A stretch of DNA of 62,777 bases, the filler included, from Collodictyon triciliatum (Eukaryota), in NCBI GenBank assembly GCA_043381765.1. It is 25 parts of 25 records of this genome, joined end to end, with 100 filler letters (N's around TTAATTAATTAA, not from the genome) between each part and the next. Parts side by side here need not be neighbours in the genome. Positions count along the whole stretch, not along the records: positions 12,603 to 15,021 come from JBHJMP010008927.1; 24 more parts are not named here. One strand, 5' to 3'. Within the stretch, counting starts at the first letter, position 1. Every line of letters starts with the position of its first letter. The notes under the pieces are model-generated. The model made no database searches, was not told where the DNA came from, and worked only from the letters and a program-made list of their open reading frames with translations. The position numbers were made by a program, and so were the translations under genes. Below, one piece after another: positions 534-57,857 of the stretch.

Positions 534-2420
534 TTAAGCTGCGGCTTTCTGTCTCCACCCAGCTGCCTTCTCAGTGTCCCTCTCAACACCCCATCCATTC
601 TCATAGCACTCAGCAACAATAGGAATAGCCTGTGGATATTTGTATCTTCCATATTCCATCATTTCAGCCATTTCTTTCAAAACATTGAATGCATCCTTTG
701 AGCCTTGTTGAGCAAGTTGCTTCAATTCATCAAAATCTAATGATAATTTCAAAGGAGCGATAACTTTCCAAAAATAAGCTCTCTCATTGTCCTTCTCAAC
801 ACCCCATCCATTGTCATAACACTCAGCCATCATTTGAGCCTGGAACTTGGTGAAGTTACCCTGCCCACAATAGGCAGCAAAGTCCGCATCATAGGAAGCA
901 GCACCGATTGAAAGTAGAAGGGTTTTGTTGAATCGACTCAATGCCGTGACATTTCTGATTTGGATGTTTCCACCTTGCAGCTTTCTTGGGCCGATAATCT
1001 GGACTGTCCTTGCATCTTGGATTCTGTTGGTGTCAATCAGATTCATCGCATCGCTTGTTCTATTGAATACTGCGATGACTTCGTCTGGATTTTCTTTGTT
1101 GACAAGATATTTTCCTTGGGTGTAGGTCACTTCTGCTTTTTGCAGACTGTGTGTTTGGCTTCCTGTGGCTAAATCCCAAATACGTATTGTATTATCACCA
1201 CTTCCAGAAGCCAGCCAATTTTCTCCATTCGGTCCTTGAATACTGCAAACACTATTGACATTGCTTGTATGACCATATAATGATTTGATTTGGTTTCCTG
1301 TGGTTACATCCCAAATACGTATTGTTTTATCAACACTTCCAGAGGCCAACCAATTTTCACCATTCGGTCCTTGAATAGTGCAAACACTCATGACAGTATT
1401 TGTATGACCTTCCAATTTTTTGATTTGGTTTCCTGTGACTACATCCCAAACATGTATTGTTTTATCATCACTCCCTGAAGCCAGCCACTTTTCACCATTC
1501 GGTCCTTGAATACTGCAAACACTCATGACAATATGTGTATGTCCTTCTAATTTTTTGATTTGGTTTCCTGTGGCTACATCACAAATACGTATTGTTTTAT
1601 CAACACTTCCAGAAGCCAACCAATTTTCGCCATTCGGACCTTGAATGCTGCAAACACTAATGACAGTATTTGTATGACCTTCCAATTTATTGATTTGGTT
1701 TCCTGTGGCTACATCCCAAATTCGTATTGTGTTATCCTTACTTCCAGATGCCAACCAATTTTCACCATTCAGCCCTTGAATACTGCAGACACTCTTGACT
1801 TCGCTTGTATGGCCTTCCAGTTTATTGATTTGGTTTCCTGTGGCTACATCCCAAATACGTATTGTATTATCTTCACTTCCAGAAGCCAACCAACTTTCAC
1901 CTTCCGGCCCTTGAATACTACAAACACTATTGACAGAATATGTATGACCTTTTAATGTTTTGACTTGGTTTCCTGAGGCTACATCCCAAATACGTATTGT
2001 ATTATCCCAACTTCCAGAAGCCAACCAATTTTCACCATTCGGTCCTTGAATGCTGCAAACACTACTGACAGTATCTGTATGACCTTCTAATGTTTTGATT
2101 TGATTTCCTGTGGCTATATCCCAAATACGTATTGTTTTATCCCAACTTCCAGAAGCCAGCCAATTTTCACCATTTGGTCCTTGAATACTGCAAACACTCC
2201 AGACTTCATTTGTATGTCTTTCTAGTTTATTATAAGGAATTCCGAATTTCACATTATTCATATGCGCATTATCAAAAACACAATCACCAAGCATCGAATT
2301 CGTGAAATCAACACCATCCAAGTTGGCACCAGTGAGGTTTGCACCATCAAGGATTGAATTACTGAGATTTGCATGCGGAATTTTGATGTTTGATAAATCC
2401 ATCCCACCGAATGAAACGTT
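534..2420 (-). CDS. Pentapeptide-repeat / WD40 (8 near-identical repeats) / Sel1-like protein; C-terminal part of a probable NACHT-WD40 NLR-like protein (5' truncated)
   Basis: Intronless ORF open to the contig edge (NVSFGGMDLSNIKIPHANLSNSILDGANLTGANL...VKFGIP). Eight 45-aa GH...WD repeats, then a cap motif IRNVTALSRFNKTLLLSIGA, then two AECY(D/E)NGWGVE(K/R)D Sel1-like motifs and TAA. The NACHT domain itself is not visible. Confidence 0.88.
   Translation of the reverse strand, partial: NVSFGGMDLSNIKIPHANLSNSILDGANLTGANLDGVDFTNSMLGDCVFDNAHMNNVKFGIPYNKLERHTNEVWSVCSIQGPNGENWLASGSWDKTIRIWDIATGNQIKTLEGHTDTVSSVCSIQGPNGENWLASGSWDNTIRIWDVASGNQVKTLKGHTYSVNSVCSIQGPEGESWLASGSEDNTIRIWDVATGNQINKLEGHTSEVKSVCSIQGLNGENWLASGSKDNTIRIWDVATGNQINKLEGHTNTVISVCSIQGPNGENWLASGSVDKTIRICDVATGNQIKKLEGHTHIVMSVCSIQGPNGEKWLASGSDDKTIHVWDVVTGNQIKKLEGHTNTVMSVCTIQGPNGENWLASGSVDKTIRIWDVTTGNQIKSLYGHTSNVNSVCSIQGPNGENWLASGSGDNTIRIWDLATGSQTHSLQKAEVTYTQGKYLVNKENPDEVIAVFNRTSDAMNLIDTNRIQDARTVQIIGPRKLQGGNIQIRNVTALSRFNKTLLLSIGAASYDADFAAYCGQGNFTKFQAQMMAECYDNGWGVEKDNERAYFWKVIAPLKLSLDFDELKQLAQQGSKDAFNVLKEMAEMMEYGRYKYPQAIPIVAECYENGWGVERDTEKAAGWRQKAAA
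1143..2222 (-). repeat. Tandem array of eight 135-bp WD40-coding units
   Basis: The motif ATCCCAAATACGTATTGT recurs every 135 nt (for example near 1848, 1983, 2118). Confidence 0.93.
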
Positions 2421-5040: not shown

Positions 5041-5222
5041 AGATTGGGATTGGGATTGGGATTGGGATTGGGATTGGGATTGGGATTGGGATTGGGATTG
5101 GGATTGGGATTGGGATTGGGATTGGGATTGAGATTGGGATTGAGATTGGGATTGAGATTGAGATTGAGATTGAGATTGAGACTGAGACTGAGACTGAGAT
5201 TGGGATTGGAATTGGAATTGGG
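5041..5222. repeat. (ATTGGG)n grading into (ATTGAG/ACTGAG)n hexamer microsatellite
   Basis: Seen directly; reads as QS or PN dipeptides on the minus strand. Confidence 0.95.
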
Positions 5223-7290
5223 ATATGATGAGTGACATTGTATTGTCATCTGACAATTTATCTGTTGGGTTGAATATATCTGATTTATATGTTGAATTGA
5301 TTTCATATGTATTATCTGTTTGTTTGAAAACTTGTGTTTTTTCTGTTGGTTCGAATATATATGATTCATCAGTTGGTTTGAATATATTTGTTTGATCTGT
5401 TGGTTCAAAAATATATGTTTTCTCTGTTGGCTCGAATTCATTTGTTTTATCCGTTGGTTCGAAATCTTGTGTTCCATCTGTTGGATCGAATTCATAGGTT
5501 TTATATGCAGTTTCATCGGTTGATGTTTTTTGGGTAGGTTCGTAAATATGTGTCTTTTGCGCTATGTCGTTCTTGTAAGTATTTATTTGTAGTTCTTTTT
5601 TATTCATATTATGTGTCTGTTTTTGTATATTTGTATCGTTTATTAGTTTTATAAAGAACCGTATTTTTTGTTCTGTCTTACATGAATTTATCATTTCATC
5701 AACTTGAATTACTTCCATATCTCTTTTATTTTCTGGGTACTTGATATCTGAAATGGTTCGATGTGAAGACTTTTTAGTAATGATAGGTACTATTTGCCTT
5801 GTTCTGTAAGTTATATCATTATCAACATGTGTCGTACACCCCTTTGAATCGAATAAAGGAAAAAAAACATTTGTCGTACACCTGGCATGTTTCGTTGTGG
5901 TTTTTGAATTGGATGAGTATTTATCCTTTTTTAATTCTGGAATACCAATATACTCGTTGTCTACTTTAGCTGGTTTATTGTTTTCGTTTCTTTTGTGTTC
6001 ATTACACTTCGATATATATTTTGTTTTTATTCCTTGTAATTTTCTTGTTGCTTTCGTTATTTTTTTGTAAATATACTCTTTTATTGATATATAAAGACGA
6101 GTAATGCGTATTTTGTAAGATATTTGATATTTTGTCACTATAAAAATGAGCTGATGCTGTTCTATGTTGATTGAAATCTTTAATAAATTTGTCTTGTTTT
6201 GAGCATTTTGGTTGAAAAGTCCATTTAAATTCTCTTATTAGGGAAATCATGGCTCGTCTAGGGATTTCAATTGGCTCTCTAATTTCGTTCTTATGTTCAA
6301 CAATCGGTAAGTCTTTTGCTTCACGTTGCAAAGGTCGGGGATGGGTTTCATTTTGTTGACTATTCTTGTATATATTTAGCTTTTCGAGACTATTTTTTAT
6401 TTAATAATCGATCCAGACGGTATATTTCGGATGTGATTCTGTTTTGGATACACAATTGGTCAATAGATTTTTTTGTAGAAACCTATGTTATGGTAACGGA
6501 AATGAACCATATTCCTCGAATTTTTCATCGTTTGCAATACGACTAGAATATGTCCAAAAATTGAAAAGGTTTTGCTCTTTTTTTTTGAATACTTGATGCA
6601 GCATTTTGATTCATCCTGTGTTGATTTACAATAGAGTATACAGGGCCATTTGAGTGTCTCACTGGAACATATCTAAATGTTTTGAGAGGACGCTGAGATT
6701 CTGGTTTTCCAAGGCTGGCTGGCTGAGTCCTAAATCTAACATCCTTCCGTGAAATAATCAATCCGTTCTTTGTATCTATTAGCTTAGAATGGATATTAAT
6801 GCCATCATCAGGAGGTGTTGAAAATGAAAATACTATAAAGTGTGAATTTCCCAGATAATGTGAAAGAGTATTTCTATCATTCGTCATTGACACTAGCCTT
6901 TGTTCCATGTGCCACAGATTGATGGCTTTGATGTGTTTATAGAAATAAATGATATCACTTGTGTATCCATATTGACTGCTTTTACTATGAATCACTAAAT
7001 ATTTACTATGGTTTTCTATTTTGAATGCAAACATGCTCTCATTCGAAGAATCCATGGGTATGAACATCTGTCGTATCTTGCAAGTCCAAAAATTTTGATT
7101 GCATAAATAGCTCAAGACCCTGTTCTCAGAGTGATTTCCATTCTTATTTCGCTTTTGTAAAGCAAAAAGATTTCTTCTTATGCACTTGATTATGTGCGAG
7201 TTCCCTCTGAGTGATTTTAAGTCGAAATATGCATATGTCCTTATTCCATCTACCAATGGTATTTGGATTATTTGTACGCCTTCATCCCCT
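5041..7290 (-). pseudogene. Long intronless AT-rich coding-like region broken into successive ORFs; contains 27-bp FEPTD(K/Q)T repeats
   Basis: Same-strand ORFs 6543-7460, 6002-6331 and 5041-6138, the last two overlapping in different frames. 9-aa repeats YEFDPTDGT/QDFEPTDKT/NEFEPTEKT/YIFEPTDQT. No homology recognised. Confidence 0.4.
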
Positions 7291-9873: not shown

Positions 9874-9982
9874 GATATCATATCATATCATATCATATCA
9901 TATCATATCATATCATATCATATCATATCATATCATATCATATCATATCATATCATATCATATCATATCATATCATATCATA
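9874..9982. repeat. (ATATC)n microsatellite just inside an intron donor
   Basis: Seen directly. Confidence 0.95.
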
Positions 9983-10601
9983 NNNNNNNNNNNNNNNNNN
10001 NNNNNNNNNNNNNNNNNNNNNNNNNNTTAATTAATTAANNNNNNNNNNNNNNNNNNNNNNNNNNNNNNNNNNNNNNNNNNNNGCTTCGCTATTTGTGCGA
10101 ATTGGTTCATCCGGATGAGTTTTGTGTTTGTTTGTTTGTTTGTTTGTTTGTTTGTTTGTTTGTTTGTTTGTTTGTTTGTTTGTTTGTTTGTTTGTTTGTT
10201 TGTTTGTTTGTTTGTTTGTTTGCCATCCCCGAGATATTAGGTACGATTTCATGGTTGACTCTACACCAATTTTGATGCTCTCACCATCTCGTGAACTAAC
10301 AGCGAACAAATTAAACACAAATGTGATTCTACAGCTTTTGGCACCGGGCGAACTTTCTCGAGGGCTCAAAAAGTCTATAATCGAGTATATGCATTGCTTC
10401 TGCCTCCATGTGGTTGGGTACAATTACGATAGATTCAGTAACAAATTTAAAAATAAAGGCACAAATGAACAAGGAAAGTTTATAAGCAGGTCGATACCAA
10501 ACACAACTGAAGGAATCTTAGAACGAGTTGTGAGCACAGAGAATAAACCAAAATAGACGCAACTATTGTCATCATCTCCTTTATTTGACGTTCTTAGAAC
10601 T

Positions 10602-12450
10602 TCACTTGGGCTGGATAGCGTCAGGAGAATGAATGGTGGAGCTGACGTTCGGTAGAGACTCATCGTCTTTGATTTCTTCGTATTGTGACTTTGTCTGTCG
10701 ATTCTGAGCGTAGATTGTGCAGCCCAGTCCGACGACGATGCACAAACCACCCATGGACTGCTCTAATGTGATTGACTCGTCTCGGAAGAAGTAGGACAAG
10801 ATTGCTGCTGCAATGGGCTGGACTGTAGATGCCAGAGACACAAGAGGGGGATTTGTGCGTTTCATAGCCTGCATCATAGGTAAAAGCAAAAGGATGGGAG
10901 AATGAAATAAATGAAGAAAGTAAGAAAAGTTAGATTTTAAGTTAGATGTATTATCTCAATTAAGATTTTTTGTTCAGAAATTTCATATGGGCCACGGGGT
11001 TTATCGAATGAGCATGAATATCCTTCAAAATATGACCATATATATGATTAATGTCTACCCACAACGTGTATGCTCACATTCTTCACAACATATTAATAAT
11101 TCAATACAACTTTCAGGAGGAAAACTCACCCAAAGAGACAAAAAATAACCCAACCCCGAGGTGATGAAACCAGCATAAAGAACAGCAAGCCAGGTATACA
11201 CATCAAACTTGCTGAAGTCTGTGACAAAGAAAAAGTAAATTGCACCTAAAACCTCTCCAATGGCACCATATATGAACGCATAGAACCCAATAAATGTGGG
11301 GTGGAGAATATTCAGCAAAGGCTTCTGGTAAACCAGATAAATAGCATAGCTCAAGGTGTTACAAAGAAAGAATATGACTCCCAGGACAAAGAGGCCATCT
11401 GAATTGTCGCTGTCATCGTCGTCCCCATCAGCAGGATACAGAATGACAACAACAGCACCGACAATAGCAGAGACCAAACCAAATACTTTCAAGACAGAAA
11501 TGCTCTCTTTCTTCAACAAGACACACAACGCCATCTACAAACACCAAGGGAGCAAATTGGTCAGAGTGTTGCCACCACTACTAACAAAGGCTGAAGAAAA
11601 AGGCACACGCGTAGAAAGAAGTTCATTTTAAATCAGGACGCTCATATGACCCGCATGATAAATATATGGATGTTTTCTCATATTTCAAATATGACCGAAG
11701 AGGCATATGAATAAAACATAAACATAAACATGGCCAGAAAATTATAATGGGGCTTACAGTCCAGACTGCCATCGAAGGTTGAATGATGGCCTGGACAGTT
11801 GGGTTGGTCAAGTCCAGGCCGTAGATGTTAAAGACTTGATTTCCTATGACGCCAAATACGCCCAACAAGGCGAGCTTTGGCTGGTATTCGCGGGGCACAT
11901 GTGGAAACTTGGAGCCGTTCTGGTAATAGGCGGCGAGGAACATGCATGAGAGTGCGATGGTGACTCGGAAGGATGAAAAGAGCAAAGGCTCAAAATCCTT
12001 TCCTTCCAGTGCCCCTTTGACGATCAGGCCGTTTGCTGAAACAAGCATGATTGACCTTAGCCAGTGTCGACAAAAGTGTAGATATAAACAAAAGAAAACA
12101 AAAGAAAACAAAAGAAAATAAAAGAAAATAAAAGAAAATAGAAGAAAATAGAAGAAAGGAAAAAGAAAGGAAAAAGAAAGGAAAAAGAAAGAAAAGAGAA
12201 AGAAAAGAGAAAGAAAAGAGAAAGAAAAGAGAAAGAAAAGAGAAAGAAAAGAGAAAGAAAAGAGAAAGGAATCACCCGCAAATATCAGCTGCACACAGAC
12301 AATGGCGCCATAGGGGATAATCTTCACAGCGACAGCCTTCCAACGCGGTTCCTCCAGTATTTCTGTCGACTGCGCCTCGTCTGACAAAGGTAGGTCGAGG
12401 GGACTTCTGTCCTGATCTGCGTTCACAGACGATCGGTGCGGGTTCGACAT
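10602..12450 (-). CDS. EamA/DMT-family (WAT1/UMAMIT, nodulin MtN21-like) transporter, 4 exons, apparently complete
   Basis: About 10 TM helices; motifs LALLGVFGVIGNQVFNIYGLDLTNPT, KESISVLKVFGLVSAIVGA, YLVYQKPLL, WLAVLYAGFITSGLGY, VQPIAAAILSYFF.DE; TGA stop. Confidence 0.9.
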
Positions 12451-12602
12451 CCCTTCGTAGCAGTATTTCTTTTTTTTTTTAAAAAAAAAAAAAAAAGAGA
12501 AANNNNNNNNNNNNNNNNNNNNNNNNNNNNNNNNNNNNNNNNNNNNTTAATTAATTAANNNNNNNNNNNNNNNNNNNNNNNNNNNNNNNNNNNNNNNNNN
12601 NN

Positions 12603-12674
<72 letters not shown>

Positions 12675-12710
12675 CTAATGTGTATTTTTTATGAATAATT
12701 ATTTTTATAG

Positions 12711-13775
12711 GCATGATAAAGCTCTTGAATGCTACCGCAAATCACTTGAAACTCGACTGAAAGTATTTGGAGAAATACACCCTGACGTCGCTGGGTCTTA
12801 TAACAATATTGGAAGTCTTTATAACCGTCTCGGGAAGTGTGTATTATTTTATCATTTATGTTTATCCTTTCATTAAATTTCATTAAATAGACATGACAAA
12901 GCCCTGGAATACTACCATAAATCTCTTGAAATCAAACTGAAAATATTTGGAGAGATGCACCCTGATGTCGCGATTTCATATCTGGGTATTGGAATCGTTT
13001 ACAATCGAATCAAACAGTATGTTATATTTGAAAAATAGGTATTATAATATTTCTTCATTTCCTTATTTTGTTTTATTTTATTTTTAATAATTTTTTGATT
13101 ATTTTTGATTATTTTTGATTATTTTTTGATTATATAAAATATTTGACAGGCATCAAAAAGCCCTCGAGTACTACCACAAATCACTTGAAATTCAAGTAAT
13201 TTTTTTTGGAGAAATGCACCCTGACGTTGCAGCGTCATACAATAGCATCGGAGCCGGTTACGACAATCTTGGAAAGTCTGGTTCATTTTCTTATATACTA
13301 CGTGTATTTTCATTTAATATATTATTTAACAGGTATGAAGAAGCCCTGGAATACTACCACAAAGGGCTTGAAATTCGACTTTATGTGTTTGGAGAAACGC
13401 ACCCTGGTGTTGCAGCGTCATACAATAATATTGGAAACATTTGCTGTCAACTTGGAAAGTATGCCTTATTCGTTTCATTATTTACTACTTGTGTTTTCAT
13501 TTAATATATTATTTAACAGGTATGAAGAAGCCCTGGAATACTATCACAAATCACTTGAAATCAAACTGACAGTGTACGGAGAAATGCACTCTGATATTGC
13601 GGTGTCGTATGGACATATTGGTGATGTACTGGTAAATCAAAAGAAATACCAAGAGGCTGTGGACATGTACCAAAAAGCCAACACGATATTCGAGACTGTG
13701 TATGGTGCAGACCATTCCGAAACCAAAGATGCAGAGAAGCGAATGATGACTGCGCAGATAATGCTGACCCAATAA
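12711..13775 (+). CDS. TPR-repeat protein (42-aa kinesin-light-chain/TPR_12 type), one repeat per exon; 5' truncated
   Basis: Exons 12711-12836, 12891-13016, 13150-13275 and 13333-13458 (each 126 nt), then terminal exon 13520-13775. Consensus KALEYYHKSLEI.L..FGE.HPDVA.SY..IG..Y..LG. Confidence 0.92.
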
Positions 13776-14963
13776 GTGACTCACCTGTTACCCACCCCAT
13801 CTAAACAACCCATTCATCCATCTCCATACCACCTTTTCCACAAAAACAAGTACAAGTGAGCACCATTCCGATGACCACCAAATCGAATGAATGCAGATGA
13901 TTGCTAGCATGTTTGCAGGGGCTGGATGAAAAGAATTAAAAAAAAAATTACCTAACCTTTCCAGCACTTGCCGATAAGCGTGACACATCTGCTGTTTGTT
14001 TGGTAATCGACCTCGAGTATATATCACAGGCTAAAAGAATGATTATGTGTTGGTTATCATTGTGCTACGGAGGTTGTATGCTTTCATTTGGTTTTTCATA
14101 TTTTACTTGATTTTTATTTTTCGCCTGGTTAAGTGTCGCAATGTCAGCTTCATGGACACAATATTTTCTTTTTCTTTTTGCGCCCATGACGATGGTGGGC
14201 TGTAATGATACATGCACTTGCTTTGTGTGTCTTTATTATGTCTTATATTATATTCATCGACTGACTTGAAGGCTGTCCATATCCTTGATTGACTGTACTG
14301 TTGTCCGTTGCATCTGCAGTTGTTTAATTATTCGGCGAAGTGTTTTGTTGTTTTCTATGTGCTTGGTTGTTGACCCAACTACAATTTTTTCATTTCTTCT
14401 CTTTTTGCTTTTGTTTTTGTTTTTTTGTTTTTGCTTTTTTGTTTTTGCTTTTTTGTTTTTGCTTTTTTGTTTTTGCTTTTTTGTTTTTGTTTTCCTTATC
14501 ATCTGCAACTATAACTTTTGATACATAGCCAACCGGAGGAAGCAAAAAAGCAAATAAAAAACCTTTCGTTCGTGCGATTTCTGCTCATCAATTAATGGAA
14601 AAAAAAAAAGGCTACTCAAGTATGTTTTGCTTGTGTTGAGAATACTCATCGCTACCCTTCTTTTTGCGTTTGGGTAATGTAATAAAGGCTTTTCTGTCGA
14701 CCTGCTTCGACCTTTGTGTAGTTGTGTGAGCGGTGTTGTGAGACTGTGCCCTGAAGCTGAACACCGCTGACGTGATTGCCCATGCGTTGTTTGTCATGTA
14801 TAATTATACAGAAGACATTCTCCCGCTATGACAGACTGGCAAATACACAACTCTATGGATTGACCTTGCCTACAGTTTCCTCACACAACACAACACGACA
14901 AATAAAAGAATATGACTCACAGAAAAGAAACATGTCGTCTTTGTTGTTTTCTATTTTCTTTCT

Positions 14964-15003
<40 letters not shown>

Positions 15004-15121
15004 TTTTTTTTTTTTTTTTTTNNNNNNNNNNNNNNNNNNNNNNNNNNNNNNNNNNNNNNNNNNNNTTAATTAATTAANNNNNNNNNNNNNNNNNNNNNNN
15101 NNNNNNNNNNNNNNNNNNNNN

Positions 15122-25230: not shown

Positions 25231-27264
25231 TCAGGGGTGCAGATTTGAGTCGATGTAACTCTGGACAGAGCACATTCGGAACTTTCTTGACACAAACTGC
25301 GACCGCATAGGATTTTTCCAAAAGCCATATAGAAACCGCGTCATGAAAAGACACCATGAAAACATACTCCCTGAAAACGTCGACCTCACATCAAGGATAT
25401 CGACATCTCCCCATTTAATGGTTATATCCTCTTCAAAAGCAGGCCCGTGTCCAAGCTTACAAAGAAAAGCCGTTGCAATACTGAAAATAATAGCAAATAT
25501 CGAGAAGTAAGTCATTTTCCGAAGCTTTGGTGAGAACGAGTCTATAAACATGTACCATTGAGCCACAACAAAATGCCACATCCAAACAACGAGTCGCCAA
25601 TCGAAGCTCATCAATATTCCCCCACTGAAGCACACTTGAGCTGAGAGCCATGTGACATACCAGTAATCAAAAGACATCAGCATTCTCTTGACCATCAGTA
25701 CGTTGGATGTGAGAGTGATTTGAGTAATAAGGTTTATCATCGACAATGTCATCCAAATGACACACATCGTTTGATTGATGGGATTAATTCTGTGTCCGAT
25801 AATAATTATCGTCAAATACATAATTGACGAAGTCATATTGATGAGAATACCACTATATGAGTACACTTTTGAACTTATGATTTTTTGGATGGATGGGAAT
25901 CGGTCTTGGAGGTAAATGTGGTATATTGTGTGGTGCCTATTCAATATTATTGTGTGTTCTTTGTATATTCCGAAAATCATGTAATCCTGAGGGTTTTGCA
26001 TAACGTGTGGTGGTATGGTCAGGTCACAGGTGTCTATGCTTCCAACAATATTGTCTTGGTTCCCTGGCTCTACTGGGAGAAAGTCTCTCACGTCACCACT
26101 CTTTTCTTCATGTCGCTCACGAGGTAATGGTATCACTTTTCGGGTTGGTTGGCTGGAGCTTTGTGATGATGGAGCTTCGAGTTTGAATGGTCGAGAGAAA
26201 AAGGGCTCAATTTGATTCATAGGACGCTCCTTGGCCAAGAATATAGTATAGTGGTCTTCTAGTAGTGTCATTGATGAGCGGTCTCGCATCAACTTGAAAA
26301 CAAGAACTCGGATTGTGTAAACTATTATCACACTCATGCTATCCACTGCTTGTGACTTGAAGTTTATCAGCTGGATACCAGAGTACACCAGCGATTTATC
26401 TTCCAAGTCTATGAATAGATACGATAGCTTGATAATCAATATTATCACAAGTGACCCGAGAATACTAAAGATGCATGTCATTATCAGGAAAGTGGGTTTT
26501 TTGAATACAAATGAATCAATGAGTAGTAAATATAAGCAGCTAGAAAAGTAGTGCACACATCCCATGGAAACTGCAATGTCTCCTTCCCAGATGTATATAA
26601 TGTAGATGTTGGATACGACCATATGGAATAGTAAATACCAGAAGTTGAATGACACCAGGGCATATTTGAGAGTATGCATATTAACAAATGCAAAGTGACA
26701 GGAAAGAAAGTATACCGTGAATACCATTTGCAATGGAATGTAAACGCTGATTGGTAAATGGCTCATTTTGCAAAGAAACAGAAACCCCATCACAGTTATT
26801 GTAATCCAAACGATGTGATTTATGATAACAGTAATTTTATTATTCCAAACCCATTTGTACATAAATTGCATGATACTAGGATTCAGGAATCTTGAGTAGA
26901 TTGTATATCTCTTTTTGATGAGTTGACAGTTGAGACCCAGCACAAGCTTTATGTTTTCCCTACGTCTGGCTGAAATGGTTCCTGCAGGTATCTCATCACT
27001 GATTTCCTGCTGTTCTTGTACCTTTGTTGTTGAAGAGTGACCGGTTTGTGGTCTTTTGTATTCAGCATTTTCTTGGGGTATATCCTGTCGATTCTCACTC
27101 TCCTTTTCAGTGGGAACGCGGTGTTCGTCATAATCCTCTTCTTCTTCTGCAATATCTGGTTTTTCTTTCAGTGTGTTCGTTACTCTATTTCTGTCTCTGT
27201 CTTGAAGGATATCCATATCTTCGATCTGAAGCTGGAACAGGCTAGTATTTGTCACCCCAATCAT
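25231..27264 (-). CDS. Multi-pass membrane protein with two internally homologous TM blocks; large terminal exon
   Basis: 677-aa ORF preceded by an acceptor (GCAG). Duplicated motif KYALVSFNFWY...LLIDSF / KRMLMSFDYWY...MFIDSF. Confidence 0.8.
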   Translation of the reverse strand: MIGVTNTSLFQLQIEDMDILQDRDRNRVTNTLKEKPDIAEEEEDYDEHRVPTEKESENRQDIPQENAEYKRPQTGHSSTTKVQEQQEISDEIPAGTISARRRENIKLVLGLNCQLIKKRYTIYSRFLNPSIMQFMYKWVWNNKITVIINHIVWITITVMGFLFLCKMSHLPISVYIPLQMVFTVYFLSCHFAFVNMHTLKYALVSFNFWYLLFHMVVSNIYIIYIWEGDIAVSMGCVHYFSSCLYLLLIDSFVFKKPTFLIMTCIFSILGSLVIILIIKLSYLFIDLEDKSLVYSGIQLINFKSQAVDSMSVIIVYTIRVLVFKLMRDRSSMTLLEDHYTIFLAKERPMNQIEPFFSRPFKLEAPSSQSSSQPTRKVIPLPRERHEEKSGDVRDFLPVEPGNQDNIVGSIDTCDLTIPPHVMQNPQDYMIFGIYKEHTIILNRHHTIYHIYLQDRFPSIQKIISSKVYSYSGILINMTSSIMYLTIIIIGHRINPINQTMCVIWMTLSMINLITQITLTSNVLMVKRMLMSFDYWYVTWLSAQVCFSGGILMSFDWRLVVWMWHFVVAQWYMFIDSFSPKLRKMTYFSIFAIIFSIATAFLCKLGHGPAFEEDITIKWGDVDILDVRSTFSGSMFSWCLFMTRFLYGFWKNPMRSQFVSRKFRMCSVQSYIDSNLHP

Positions 27265-27707
27265 CTGCGACTTAAAAAAGAAAACGTATTTGTTTTGAGT
27301 ATCAAAGAATATTGGAGAGGGTTATGGTCTTTATTTTCTCAGTCATTTATTCACTATTATTCTCAGTTCCTGAATCTCTGTTTTAATTGCGCTGGTTTTT
27401 ATGCCGTTTTCTTTATTTCTCTCTTTTTTTTTCTCTCTTTTTTTTTCTCTCTTTTTTTTCTCTCTTTTTTTTCTCTCTTTTTTTTCTCTCTTTTTTTTCT
27501 CTCTTTTTTTTTCTCTCTTTTTTTTCTCTCTTTTTTTTCTCTCTTTTTTTTCTCTCTTTTTTTTCTCTCTTTTTTTTCTCTCTTTTTTTTCTCTCTTTTT
27601 TTTCTCTNNNNNNNNNNNNNNNNNNNNNNNNNNNNNNNNNNNNNNNNNNNNTTAATTAATTAANNNNNNNNNNNNNNNNNNNNNNNNNNNNNNNNNNNNN
27701 NNNNNNN

Positions 27708-30222: not shown

Positions 30223-30405
<183 letters not shown>

Positions 30406-34406: not shown

Positions 34407-34756
34407 NNNNNNNNNNNNNNNNNNNNNNNNNNNNNNNNNNNNNNNNNNNNNNNNNNNNNNNNNNNNNNNNNNNNNNNNNNNNNNNNNNNNNNNNNNNNNN
34501 NNNNNNNNNNNNNNNNNNNNNNNNNNNNNNNNNNNNNNNNNNNNNNNNNNNNNNNNNNNNNNNNNNNNNNNNNNNNNNNNNNNNNNNNNNNNNNNNNNNN
34601 NNNNNNNNNNNNNNNNNNNNNNNNNNNNNNNNNNNNNNNNNNNNNNNNNNNNNNNNNNNNNNNNNNNNNNNNNNNNNNNNNNNNNNNNNNNNNNNNNNNN
34701 NNNNNNNNNNNNNNNNNNNNNNNNNNNNNNNNNNNNNNNNNNNNNNNNNNNNNNNN
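34407..34756. other. Internal scaffold gap (350 N, no linker)
   Basis: Seen directly; it lies immediately upstream of the retrotransposon endonuclease. Confidence 0.95.
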
Positions 34757-52837: not shown

Positions 52838-54726
52838 TTGGGCTCCCTAGAGAAACACTTAGTATCCCCAAAAGCTGGATAATGGATTTACAGGTCATGG
52901 AAATGTCAGATGGTTATAAATTGCTTGTGTCTGGAAACAGTGACCATGTGATTCGGTTTTGGGATGTTGCAACTGGAAACGTCGTCAAAGTATTAGAAGG
53001 TCATTCGGCGACGATAAGTTGTGTGCATATGTTGCAAGGGCCAAACGATGAGAAGTGGTTGGCATCTTGCGGTGATGATACCACTATTCGTATCTGGGAT
53101 GTGTTATCCGGTGACGTTATAAGAGTTTTAGAATCCGATTCATTCAGTCCAGTGTATAGCCTTATCGGCATAAAGGGTCCTAATGGAGAGCGCTGGTTGG
53201 CATCTGGGAGCAAAGATAACACGATTACGATTTGGGACTTTGCTACAGGCGACCGCATCAAAGTACTAATTGGACATTCTCACTATGTGCTCACTATGTG
53301 CTATGTCAACACCCAGCCTGGGGTCGACTGGTTGATATCAGGAGGCGGAGACAAAAAAATCCTTGTCTGGGATATCGAATCCGGTACTGTGGCTAAAACT
53401 TTTGAGGGACACGCAAATACTGTAAATGCGATTTGCCCTGTGAAAGGTCCCAAGGATGAAAACTGGCTCGCTTCAGCAAGTGATGACAAGTCTGTCCGCA
53501 TTTGGGACATCAACTCTAGTTCTTTGGTCATGGTCATGGAAGGACACACGGACTTTGCACGGTGTGTCTGCGGAATAGAGGGTCCGCAAGGAGAAAGATG
53601 GATAGCTTCTGGGGGGAATGATAACGTGGTTCGAATATGGGATTTGGTGACAGGAAATGAGCTGGTTACATTCCACGGACATCAGCGAGCTGTTATCACT
53701 TTATGTGTCATGGAGAATTATAACCACTGTGAAATGTGGCTGGCCTCTGGGAGCTTCGACGGCTTTATACGCTTTTGGAGCTTAAAGCCAGATGATTGGA
53801 CTTTGCCCGAGCAAAATATTGGTGTTAACAATCACGAAAGAGCAAGGGAACTTAGTTCTGTAAAAGCTTCCTTATCTTCTGAAACAACCAGGGCCGAGTC
53901 CTGCCGGCAACAAGCCACGCAATCAAAGAGTCTACAAGGTGGCGATATATCTTTAAGAAATGCACGAGGTTTGAATACGTTTAATAAACGTGTTTTGCTA
54001 TCACACGGCGGGGTCTCCTTCGACGAGGACTTTGTCCAACACTGCTTGGCTTCAAATTACACCCCTTTCCAAGCTATAATGATGGGGCACTGTTATGAAA
54101 ATGGGCTGGGAATCCATATGGATGCAGATAAGGCCGTTCTTTGGACAACCGTTTTGGCACTCAAGGCTGCGTCTGACTATGCCAGTCTGACAAACATGTG
54201 TGAAAAAGGGTCTGTGGCTGCATTTGAAGCTTTGGTTGGCTTGGCTAAAGAAGATTCGGGAGGGACCTGCAAGCGCCCTTTGGCCGCAAAATCTGTAGCA
54301 GGGTGCTTTGAGCGCGGGTGGGCTGTGGAGAAGGACATAAAAACCGCAGTCGAGTGGTATGACCGAGCAGACGATTTTGCAGAGCTGAAAAGACTGGCCG
54401 TAGATGGGTCGGCAGAAGGTTTGGAGAAGCTGAAACACGCGGCTATGAAGAAAACAGCCACTGGTCCGAAGCATCCGATGGCTGGAAAATTACTGGGCGA
54501 GTGCTACGAAAACGGATGGCTTGGAGAAGCGAGTCTGTCCTCTGCGATAGACTGGTACGGAAGGGCAAAGTGCTTTCCTGAGCTAAAACGTTTGGCACAA
54601 CAAGGCTCTACCTATGCTTTCGATACAATTAAGGATATATCTGAGGCTAAGATGGGGCACCAACTGAGATATCCGGAAGCTGCTGCAATCGTCGCCGAGT
54701 GCATTCAAAACGGATGGGGTTGTTAA
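52838..54726 (+). CDS. WD40 (7 diverged repeats) / Sel1-like protein, paralog of 534-2420; 5' truncated
   Basis: Frame open to the contig edge (GLPRETL, equivalent to GIPYNKL). GP(N/K/Q)(G/D)E.WLAS WD signature, cap LQGGDISLRNARGLNTFNKRVLLSHGG, four CYENG(W/L)G-type motifs, TAA. Confidence 0.88.
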
Positions 54727-55247: not shown

Positions 55248-56270
55248 NNNNNNNNNNNNNNNNNNNNNNNNNNNNNNNNNNNNNNNNNNNNTTAATTAAT
55301 TAANNNNNNNNNNNNNNNNNNNNNNNNNNNNNNNNNNNNNNNNNNNNTATGTATGTATGTATGTATGTATGTATGTATGTATGTATGTATGTATGTATGT
55401 ATGTATGTATGTATGTATGTATGTATGTATGTATGTATGTATGCTACTTTTGTGTTTTCATTTTTTGTTTTTGTTTTTCGCTTCATCCTTAACTCGATTT
55501 TTTGAAAGGAGTCTAGAGGTTCGCTGACTTTAAAAGAAAAAGGGCGAAAAAAAAACAAGAAAAACAAAAACAAAAACAAAAACAAAAACAAAAACAAAAA
55601 CAAAAACAAAAACAAAAGGAAAAAGAAAAGGAAAAAGAAAAAGAGAAAGAAAAATGAGAGGAAGATATGCCAAGAAAAAGAAAGCCGAGAAGCCGCACTC
55701 CGATGGAGCGCGCAAGGGTCGAACAAGGAAAAACAAAGTGCGTGGACTTCTCAGGGATTCTTGTGCCTTGGCCGGGGTGATCAAATGCGGTTTCGCCAAA
55801 GGGGATAGATTATGGAAATATTGCTGGCAAAGCCCAAAGAAAAGAATAATCTGGCTGAATTGGCGAACACAGTGGCTTCTACAGCGACAGCATAGCCCGA
55901 AGAAGGTATCAATACCTCGCACCGAACACCCAAAACCCGCACTTCTTTTTTGGTTCTTTGCTGCAAACCCTTTGGTTGGAAACGGTAATTTTTGGCACAC
56001 AGTCTCTGAACATGATTTATTCGCGCTTCATCAATTCCTTTTCGCTCGACTCATGGCACAGCATTTACTAGCACGGTTGAGGCAATATGACTGAGATATG
56101 CATTCAATCGGGAAAAATGGCGAAGCATACTTTCATTATCATTATCATTACAATCATCATTATTGTCAATGTCATGATTAGTAACATTATTCTTTTTCGG
56201 TGCCAAATTAGAGCACTTGTTTATCTGATATCTTTTGAAAGTGTGATAAGTACAGCGAACCATACAATCA

Positions 56271-57401
56271 TCACCAAGTAATCAACTTGCTCGATGAAAT
56301 GGCTACCAGCTTCCCACCACCCGAAAATGCAACAGCTTGTGGGTTCTGGGCCACCAGAGACTTTAGGAGCTTTCCTGCCGAATCATAAATGTTGATTCGA
56401 TTGGCGTTTTGGAACGAAATAATGAACCCACCATTTGGCCCTCGTGTCATGTAGCTCCATCCCTCACCGTATGCCTGTATCGGTATACTGCGAGTGTATT
56501 CGCCGTCAGTATTGAATACATGAACACTTTCATTAGACCTTTCAAGGACCAAAATCTCGTTTTCGTCATTAACAGTAATACCAACTGGATGGACGAGCTT
56601 CTTCGTTAGAGAACCAAGGCTAGAAAACGCGCAAACAAAATCACCAGTCTTTGTAAACTTCTGAATTCTGCAATTTCCTTCATCTGTGACATAGAAGTTC
56701 TCATCAAGGTCAAATGCAATATAATTTGGAAGGATAAACTTTCCAGGCTCAACACCTTTGGTACCGACTATCCTTACTAGATTGTGGCTGCGGTCAAATA
56801 TATGAACACAACAATTCTGCTTGCAAACCACATTGATATACTCCCCATCCAAGGAAATCGCTATTCCGTTCGGTCCAATCATGTTACATCCACGTGTCAT
56901 CCCGCGCGACATGCCACCTATGTCCCGAAAATGTTTGTCGAATGCATGAACAACGTTTTGATAGTTATCTGTGAGATAAATGTTCTCCGTCTCGAGCCCA
57001 AAAGCTATCCCCACATTAAACCCACGAAGATGCATCAAGAGCGAGTGCCTGGGACTCTCCACATCATCGGAAAGCAAGTGGCCTTCGCATTTGATTAGTG
57101 GGAAATTCGCGTCGTACACAAACTTGAATGACGCATAATCGCAGCCAGGATGGTTATCTAAGGCTCTTGGAATCTGCTTTCTAATAGCTCTGTGATCAGA
57201 TGGCTTCTCGATGGTTGCTTCAACAATCTTAAGCATTCGCTCATAAACCATAAACATCTGAATCAACTGTGTTTTGCTTTTGTTCTTTTCACTCATTGTG
57301 AGATACAGCAGCTGACGCTTTGGGTAATGCTGAAGCTGTTGTATGCAATAATATTCTCCTGCACTTTGACATTTTAAATGCTTATGTCGGATACCATAAA
57401 C
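56271..57401 (-). CDS. NHL-repeat beta-propeller protein, paralog of 46250-47410
   Basis: GPNGIAIS; GTKGVEPGKFILPNYIAFDLDENFYVTDEGNCRIQKF; PVGITVN. The frame stays open upstream to an acceptor near 57402. Confidence 0.88.
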   Translation of the reverse strand, partial: VYGIRHKHLKCQSAGEYYCIQQLQHYPKRQLLYLTMSEKNKSKTQLIQMFMVYERMLKIVEATIEKPSDHRAIRKQIPRALDNHPGCDYASFKFVYDANFPLIKCEGHLLSDDVESPRHSLLMHLRGFNVGIAFGLETENIYLTDNYQNVVHAFDKHFRDIGGMSRGMTRGCNMIGPNGIAISLDGEYINVVCKQNCCVHIFDRSHNLVRIVGTKGVEPGKFILPNYIAFDLDENFYVTDEGNCRIQKFTKTGDFVCAFSSLGSLTKKLVHPVGITVNDENEILVLERSNESVHVFNTDGEYTRSIPIQAYGEGWSYMTRGPNGGFIISFQNANRINIYDSAGKLLKSLVAQNPQAVAFSGGGKLVAISSSKLITW

Positions 57402-57857
57402 CTGGGGAGGAATAAACGGGGATGTGTAAGAATTATTATATATGTCGACGCCGTGATTAATTCCGGCAATCGAATAATATTAAGAGAAATGGCCAATAAA
57501 AAAAATTAATTATCTGATCATTTTCAGGGTAGAGGTTGGGACATGTACTCTTTCAGGAGAATAAAAAGGTATCCATAACAAAAAAATGAGAAAGAAAATT
57601 AAAACATAAATAATCCACTTTTCATGTTTTTGACAGCGATATATCTCTTTCTTTTTTATTTTTATTTTTATTTTTTATTTTTTATTTTTTATTTTTTATT
57701 TTTTATTTTTTATTTTTTATTTTTTATTTTTTATTTTTTATTTTTTATTTTTTATTTNNNNNNNNNNNNNNNNNNNNNNNNNNNNNNNNNNNNNNNNNNN
57801 NTTAATTAATTAANNNNNNNNNNNNNNNNNNNNNNNNNNNNNNNNNNNNNNNNNNNN

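Follow-up and report, generated by a model that had tools for sequence, protein, structure and literature searches.

A spliced array of 126-nucleotide tetratricopeptide repeat exons in the freshwater protist Collodictyon triciliatum

Results

We analysed a 62,777-base stretch of the Collodictyon triciliatum genome (GCA_043381765.1), referred to below as the window. Positions 12711-13775 on its plus strand most likely are the 3′ part of a genuine gene, one that is transcribed and spliced, belongs to a multi-copy family and encodes a C-terminal array of 42-residue tetratricopeptide repeats (TPRs) of the kinesin light chain type. A preliminary description of this region had gone further, regarding it as the sensor end of a modular receptor with one TPR per exon, whose exons could be shuffled or combinatorially spliced.

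The window consists of 25 pieces, ordered by falling size from 2,420 down to 2,410 bases, with a spacer (44 N, TTAATTAATTAA, 44 N) between one and the next. The assembly is fragmented, and pieces that stand side by side are thus unrelated contigs whose adjacency is artificial. The TPR gene lies on the piece at 12603-15021 (2,419 bases). The 5′ edge of this contig is a (TAT)24 microsatellite at 12603-12674 (Tandem Repeats Finder, TRF: period 3, 24 copies, 100% matches), located within the intron upstream of the first visible exon, and it is here that the assembly was broken. As the contig starts 108 nucleotides (nt) 5′ of the first visible exon (12711), the N-terminus of the protein, be it NB-ARC or other, is off the contig.

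Geometry of the exons and introns

The visible exons that precede the terminal one lie at 12711-12836, 12891-13016, 13150-13275 and 13333-13458. A script run on the window found each of them to be 126 nt long, with AG before and GT after, and the joined exons are open in one frame only. The codons split at the exon ends are AA/G, CA/G, AA/G and AA/G, two bases ending one exon and the third starting the next. Since the codon is split after its second base at every border, the introns are of phase 2 and the exons are symmetric (2-2). The geometry given in the preliminary description, namely four 126-nt exons flanked by GT-AG introns of phase 2 at the same codon, was thus confirmed by the script and by the spliced contigs presented below. 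Its corollary also stands, as 126-nt exons with symmetric 2-2 phases can be lost or gained without a frameshift.

The introns measure 54, 133, 57 and 61 nt (12837-12890, 13017-13149, 13276-13332 and 13459-13519, all GT..AG), and their GC content is 13-23%, compared with 37-42% in the exons. Introns 1 and 2 have 19% and 13% GC, respectively, and intron 2 contains a short tandem repeat as well as an alternative donor GT at 13039. Upstream of exon 1, the 3′ end of a further intron occupies 12675-12710, with its acceptor AG at 12709-12710. Intron 3 is free of stops and in frame, and an open frame at 13130-13504 spans it, so that the case for its removal is made by the RNA joints and by the logic of the repeat. 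Retention of this intron would add 19 residues and keep the frame.

The terminal coding exon (13520-13775) carries a fifth 42-residue unit, followed by a C-terminal capping TPR-like stretch, and ends with the stop codon TAA at 13773-13775. It is followed by a 3′ untranslated region at 13776-13979, a span given by the extent of RNA-type cover (depth in run X1, introduced below, reaches the bin 13899-13979). Other parts of the contig, such as 13980-14627, have no cover in the runs. The five 42-codon units can be aligned without gaps, and TRF independently reports a tandem unit of 183 nt (126+57) at 13140-13594, with 2.5 copies, 79% matches and a score of 543.

Splicing in public sequencing runs

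Eight public runs matched the stretch, each with a small share, and four of them (X1, X2, X3 and X5) were placed on the contig. X1 and X2, putative RNA runs, include intron-less contigs, called RNA-type below. Both runs show the joint from 12836 to 12891, which skips the 54 nt of intron 1 (GT..AG) and joins exon 1 to exon 2; its sides measure 125 and 126 nt. The joint from 13016 to 13150 (a skip of 133 nt) comes from X1 and has a 29-nt side. Intron-bearing DNA contigs were supplied by the freshwater metagenome runs X3 and X5, at 13204-13354 (0 differences) and 12848-13053 (2 differences).

The donor at 13275 is also used in X1 and X2. In both, it is spliced to a stretch of 22 nt for which 13333 is as good a fit as 13520, and that the tool assigned to 13333 in X2 and to 13520 in X1. 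The first 24 nt of exons 4 and 5 are identical, and a side of 22 nt therefore cannot separate the two exons, which means that this joint is no evidence for skipping. We rejected the apparent skip of exon 4 (13275 to 13520 in X1) as a mapping ambiguity. Both runs do contain exon 4, in contigs covering 13334-13463. Intron 4 is bridged by no listed contig.

One variant was seen. A joint reported in X2 from 13036 to 13148, equivalent to 13038 to 13150 when the cut is shifted by +2, makes use of the alternative donor in intron 2 (GT at 13039), 22 nt 3′ of the regular one. The 22 extra nucleotides end in an in-frame TAG (13036-13038), so this form would be unproductive or give a truncated product. 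At the other end of the array, an RNA-type contig of X1 extends 112 nt 5′ of 12711 into sequence absent from this genomic contig, and at least one further exon therefore lies past the contig edge.

No transcript with skipped or swapped exons was found among the X1 and X2 contigs, which are Logan contigs and as such drop rare variants and break at repeats. Joints that go back along the contig, and long skips with foreign letters between the two sides, were also considered; we read them as paralogous units placed at 88% likeness, and not as back-splicing or shuffling. Altogether, splicing is constitutive in the data seen, except for one unproductive alternative donor, and what we see is the tail of a TPR gene that is expressed and correctly spliced.

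Repeat class and structural register

All five units match Pfam TPR_12/TPR_10, the 42-residue repeats of the kinesin light chain type. The TPR_12 scores of the four 126-nt exons are 32.8, 32.8, 26.1 and 36.1 bits (E-values 7.8e-08, 8.3e-08, 9.9e-06 and 7.5e-09) against a cut-off of 30.1 bits, under which exon 3 falls, and the terminal exon reaches 67.7 bits (1.1e-18). Exon 1 also matches TPR_10, with an E-value of 2e-08.

The 34-residue model Pfam TPR_1 sets the register of the repeat within the exon. Model positions 17-29/30 align with residues 1-13/14 of the exon, and model position 1 with unit residue 27. Each exon therefore contains helix B of one TPR, then the linker and, after it, helix A of the following repeat, with the intron placed in the A/B turn. 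In consequence, the earlier notion of one TPR per exon is correct for the 42-residue period and needs amending for the register, as by the TPR_1 coordinates the exon is half a repeat off.

Among natural proteins of solved structure, the TPR domains of kinesin light chains 1 and 2 come nearest, with an E-value of 1.6e-10 over 70 residues. This likeness of the terminal exon is generic and not a sign of close orthology. We also obtained a partial, sub-threshold match to Pfam TPR_NPHP3 (29.9 bits vs a cut-off of 100).

Variable positions and selection on the units

Entropy across the five units is maximal at unit positions 28, 31-32, 35-36 and 38-39, which in the Pfam register are positions 2, 5, 6, 9, 10, 12 and 13 of the TPR, in helix A. 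Such helix-A positions line the concave binding face of TPRs. Variable residues at concave-face helix positions are also described for the TPRs of fungal NOD-like receptors (NLRs) in the passages of Dyrka et al (2014; PMC4986451) that deal with these repeats. The variable helix pattern pointed out in the preliminary description is thus real, as the entropy peaks demonstrate, but it is not in itself a sign of diversification. Six unrelated intron-less TPR_12 arrays on metagenome contigs are most variable at the same positions (Spearman coefficient of the entropy profiles 0.52, p 5e-4), indicating that such variability comes with the fold and does not single out this gene.

For the ten unit pairs, the pooled Nei-Gojobori method gave a synonymous divergence (dS) of 1.12 and a ratio of nonsynonymous to synonymous divergence (dN/dS) of 0.27. 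An excess of nonsynonymous change at the variable helix positions, which a diversifying receptor had been expected to show, was not found: dN/dS was 0.89, and so not above 1, at the seven variable codons even though these were chosen after the fact, and 0.19 at the other 35 codons. Identity between units is 64-75% for DNA and 48-67% for protein. The units are old duplicates, mostly under purifying selection. Comparison of the window with the RNA-type contigs yielded 9 listed differences, 5 of them synonymous and 4 non-synonymous. Neither the variable helix residues nor the exon symmetry is enough, taken alone, to signal diversification.

Exchange between neighbouring units and a family of expressed copies

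Units 4 and 5 share a near-identical tract, in which 65 of 69 bases agree between 13294-13362 (plus strand) and 13481-13549. This tract covers the final 39 nt of intron 3 and runs 30 nt into exon 4, and its counterpart spans the border of intron 4 and exon 5. Over the remaining 96 nt, exons 4 and 5 are identical at 54 positions (54/96), the lowest value of all pairs; for each of the nine remaining unit pairs, the most similar window of 69 nt gives 52-58/69. The binomial tail probability of 65/69 is 7e-7 at a background identity of 70% and 9e-4 at 80%. The tract is most simply explained as a gene-conversion or unequal-crossover tract with an edge inside the exon.

The RNA-type contigs placed on the region numbered 71 in X1 and 56 in X2, with a wide range of likeness. 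In X1, 7 of the 71 contigs were at least 99% alike, 36 fell at 90-95% and 11 below 90%, and nine different contigs cross position 13909 in the 3′ untranslated region. The gene thus belongs to a multi-copy, expressed family, and many paralogous units are transcribed.

We also looked for dead or antisense TPR exons. A tblastn search of the five units against the window, at E-values up to 10, recovered nothing beyond these units and the cap, all on this contig, with no dead or antisense TPR exons in the introns or in the rest of the contig. The evidence on exon shuffling, as proposed earlier, comes from five units and is divided: the single 65/69 trace of exchange and the expression of many paralogous units speak for it, and the age of the units and the selection acting on them speak against it.

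Relatives of the array

A word-based homologue search with the terminal exon against longer proteins returned 6 hits out of 31 candidates, at 29-45% identity and none from the source organism; three of these 6 hits carry a CHAT domain (PF12770). The full library search with the same exon gave 42,378 hits at E-values up to 0.001, and no orthologue among them: the best 150 are at most 52% identical, and their rank follows repeat number. Pfam analysis of 36 of these best 150 hits (ranks 3-41, the longest omitted) revealed no common non-TPR domain in the 25 listed families, spurious ones aside. The first member carries DUF4062 and AAA_22.

A metagenome scan yielded 80 loci, at most 54% identical and none extending the TPR gene. 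Among these, every locus in which two or more units were found has mainly contiguous 126-nt spacing, and none has per-repeat introns. Finally, no NB-ARC or NACHT domain was detected in the 99 scanned (91 + 8) of 130 filtered open reading frames (ORFs) of at least 85 residues in the window, these ORFs being on contigs unrelated to the TPR gene.

Other features of the window

Several other contigs of the window carry recognizable coding sequence. An intron-less WD40 ORF of 628 residues (534-2420, minus strand) runs off its contig end. It contains an array at 1154-2198 whose 7.7 copies repeat every 135 nt, with 86% matches and without indels, in the style of the WD repeats of fungal HET-E-type NLRs. 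A second intron-less WD40 ORF is located at 52840-54726 (plus strand). Long ORFs with NHL repeats are found at 56271-57479 (minus strand; Pfam E-value 4.8e-11) and 46250-47428 (minus strand; 1e-07). Two further long open frames, at 25231-27321 (minus strand, 696 residues) and 5041-6234 (minus strand, 398 residues), had no Pfam match at E-values up to 0.001.

An exon of an aminotransferase class I/II gene (44130-44489, minus strand) is 70% identical to an EukProt protein of the collodictyonid Diphylleia rotans. That protein is a fused aminotransferase/prephenate dehydrogenase, and the next matches are two amoebozoans (EukProt) at 57%. Alongside the matching runs from freshwater metagenomes, this one exon hints at a microbial eukaryote of fresh water as the source. 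An intron-split gene for an EamA-like transporter lies at 10083-12502 (minus strand), with ORF pieces at 10605-10955, 11058-11534 and 11626-12501 and long purine-rich tandem repeats at 12086-12268 inside one intron.

Most contigs of the window start or end in a perfect microsatellite or homopolymer, such as (TAT)24, (ATATC)21, (AG)44(GT)47 and (TATG)24, with examples at 12603-12674, 9875-9982, 30223-30403 and 55348-55443, and the assembly evidently broke at these simple repeats. An additional gap of 350 N is present at 34407-34756. Rfam returned 0 matches over the whole window.

Discussion

The exon geometry, the spliced joints, the repeat class and the number of related transcripts together make it likely that positions 12711-13775 are the 3′ end of a genuine gene whose protein ends in an array of 42-residue TPRs and which has many expressed relatives. 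The array probably grew as a module, consisting of a single 126-nt exon and a short intron, was duplicated in tandem. Duplication of such a module would explain the shared phase-2 position of all the introns, between helices A and B in the turn. From what is known of the TPR fold, the protein is predicted to form a solenoid, the concave face of which, with helix-A positions that vary from unit to unit, would bind a protein or peptide partner.

Several observations weigh against this picture. None of the runs that match this stretch is on record as RNA. The assignment of X1 and X2 as RNA is the guess of the tool, and we take their RNA nature from the intron-less joints. The only X2 contig across intron 2 takes the alternative donor and so yields a stop. 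Rare exon-skipped isoforms would be invisible in Logan contigs, for the reasons given above. The 65/69 tract across the borders of units 4 and 5 means that recombination or gene conversion between units has occurred, and the array is thus not purely static. Finally, function is read here from the class of repeat alone, with the N-terminus lying beyond the contig.

As for what that N-terminus could be, an NTPase (nucleoside triphosphatase) of the STAND class (ATPases for signal transduction, with numerous domains), similar to NB-ARC or NACHT proteins, is a plausible partner, and we suggest it tentatively. The step from there to the proposal of the preliminary description, in which the array forms the sensor end in a family of NLR-like receptors (NB-ARC/NACHT-TPR) with exons shuffled or combinatorially spliced, as proposed for Ectocarpus, is one that we consider unlikely to be correct. 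In its favour, the exon design equals that of the Ectocarpus TPR exons (126 nt/42 residues, as given in the passages of PMC3341825 on these exons), the 2-2 symmetry would tolerate exon loss or gain, many paralogous units are expressed, and the mosaic tract points to exchange between neighbouring units. Moreover, the variable residues occupy concave-face positions as in fungal NLR TPRs, and C-terminal arrays of 42-residue TPRs often follow NB-ARC (both according to the TPR passages of PMC4986451). Intron-less WD40 arrays with 86% internal repeat identity, in the style of HET-E-type NLRs, are also present on other contigs. However, no NB-ARC or NACHT domain is visible, neither on a contig that ends 108 nt 5′ of exon 1 nor in the 99 of 130 ORFs scanned, and the sole apparent exon skip is ambiguous. 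The protein identity of the units (48-67%) is far below the more than 85% stated as typical of fungal NLR repeats in those passages of PMC4986451. A dS of 1.12, with a dN/dS of 0.27 overall and 0.89 even at variable codons picked afterwards, also argues against this proposal, as do the same variable positions in unrelated intron-less arrays and the introns free of dead or antisense TPR exons.

A broader version of this proposal, which we regard as equally doubtful, would be that a deep-branching freshwater protist independently evolved the 126-nt repeat-per-exon design within a large, expressed family of STAND-NTPase-TPR receptors, and that recombination of exon and intron modules reshuffles the ligand-binding helices. 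If this were true, then, taken with the self-similar WD40 arrays, it would reveal an NLR-like repertoire for non-self recognition in a lineage for which none has been described. And if the upstream half proved to be an NB-ARC/NACHT NTPase, the gene would be a second, phylogenetically distant case of a repeat-per-exon TPR receptor after Ectocarpus.

The array could instead descend from a horizontally acquired TPR_12 array of bacterial type (CHAT-protease-TPR or NTPase-TPR), in which one repeat gained an intron and the resulting module of exon and intron was then duplicated, a scenario that strikes us as quite improbable. It would account for the fact that the closest relatives of the terminal exon are intron-less, contiguous 126-nt arrays, many of them on bacterial-looking contigs, and for the CHAT domains in half of the word-search hits; the intron-less WD40 arrays of other contigs also match bacterial and fungal sequences best. 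Yet identity to such arrays is 29-54%, which does not exceed the conservation common to TPR_12 in general, the exons are in keeping with the host in GC content and codon usage, and the query is too short and repetitive for phylogeny.

If the gene encoded a housekeeping TPR protein, for instance a kinesin light chain or a scaffold like nephrocystin-3, the exon pattern would be irrelevant to diversity. Such an identity would agree with the nearest solved structures, the partial TPR_NPHP3 match and the purifying selection overall, but is very improbable given a kinesin light chain similarity that is generic, the missing close orthologue among the 42,378 library hits, the diverged paralogous contigs that the RNA-type runs contain by the dozen, which argue against a single conserved gene, and an array of at least six units plus cap, with further units upstream.

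Our preferred reading, a spliced C-terminal TPR array from a multi-copy family, can be set beside four known systems. The intron-less TPR_12 arrays of metagenomes (L001, L003, L005, L010 and others) share with it the 126-nt period, the conserved scaffold and the variable positions (Spearman 0.52). Unlike the array described here, they are contiguous in one frame, with no per-repeat introns, and are at most 54% identical to the terminal exon. The TPR domains of kinesin light chains (PDB 3NF1, 5OJ8, 3CEQ and 3EDT) represent the closest natural solved fold class, with 42-residue TPRs and the same conserved linker pattern. The Collodictyon gene differs from kinesin light chains in that the match has an E-value of about 1e-10 only, the family is multi-copy and the repeats number more than 6 once upstream exons are counted.

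The literature background of the preliminary description is borne out for both fungi and brown algae, as far as the pertinent passages of the two papers extend. In fungal NLRs, most TPR motifs are 42 residues long, and NB-ARC is preferentially paired with TPR (Dyrka et al, 2014; PMC4986451). The likeness to our array lies in these 42-residue motifs and in the variable residues at concave-face helix positions, a feature that does not discriminate. The fungal arrays of note are, according to the same passages, more than 85% conserved internally and polymorphic in repeat number, compared with 48-67% (protein) and 64-75% (DNA) identity here, and their repeats are described there as lying within exons, not as one exon per repeat. 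Fungal NLRs also carry a NOD domain, which in the TPR gene studied here, if present, would be off the contig.

The closest parallel is the NB-ARC-TPR family of the brown alga Ectocarpus siliculosus, for which the passages of Zambounis et al (2012; PMC3341825) on the TPR exons report 124 such exons of 126 nt/42 residues spread over 13 NB-ARC loci, together with inactivated TPR exons inside introns and modest evidence of positive selection. By comparison with these, the repeat-per-exon layout of a TPR gene is one already known from brown algae. Ectocarpus, as described in those passages, shares with the present gene serial TPR exons of 126 nt/42 residues with sizes that are multiples of three, multiple copies and 42-residue repeats of the kinesin light chain type. 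They differ in that no inactivated TPR exons were found in the introns here, that the NB-ARC part, if any, would lie beyond the contig, and that the host here is a protist of fresh water with AT-rich DNA, and no brown alga. They may also differ in register, since the exon border falls inside the TPR here, in the turn between helices A and B, whereas the same passages describe the Ectocarpus exon as a 34-residue TPR plus linker. Going by the description in that paper, this hints at a different intron position and hence at an independent origin. Should the Collodictyon gene indeed encode a receptor, the different place of the intron within the repeat would argue that this layout is a recurrent eukaryotic route to modular receptor arrays.

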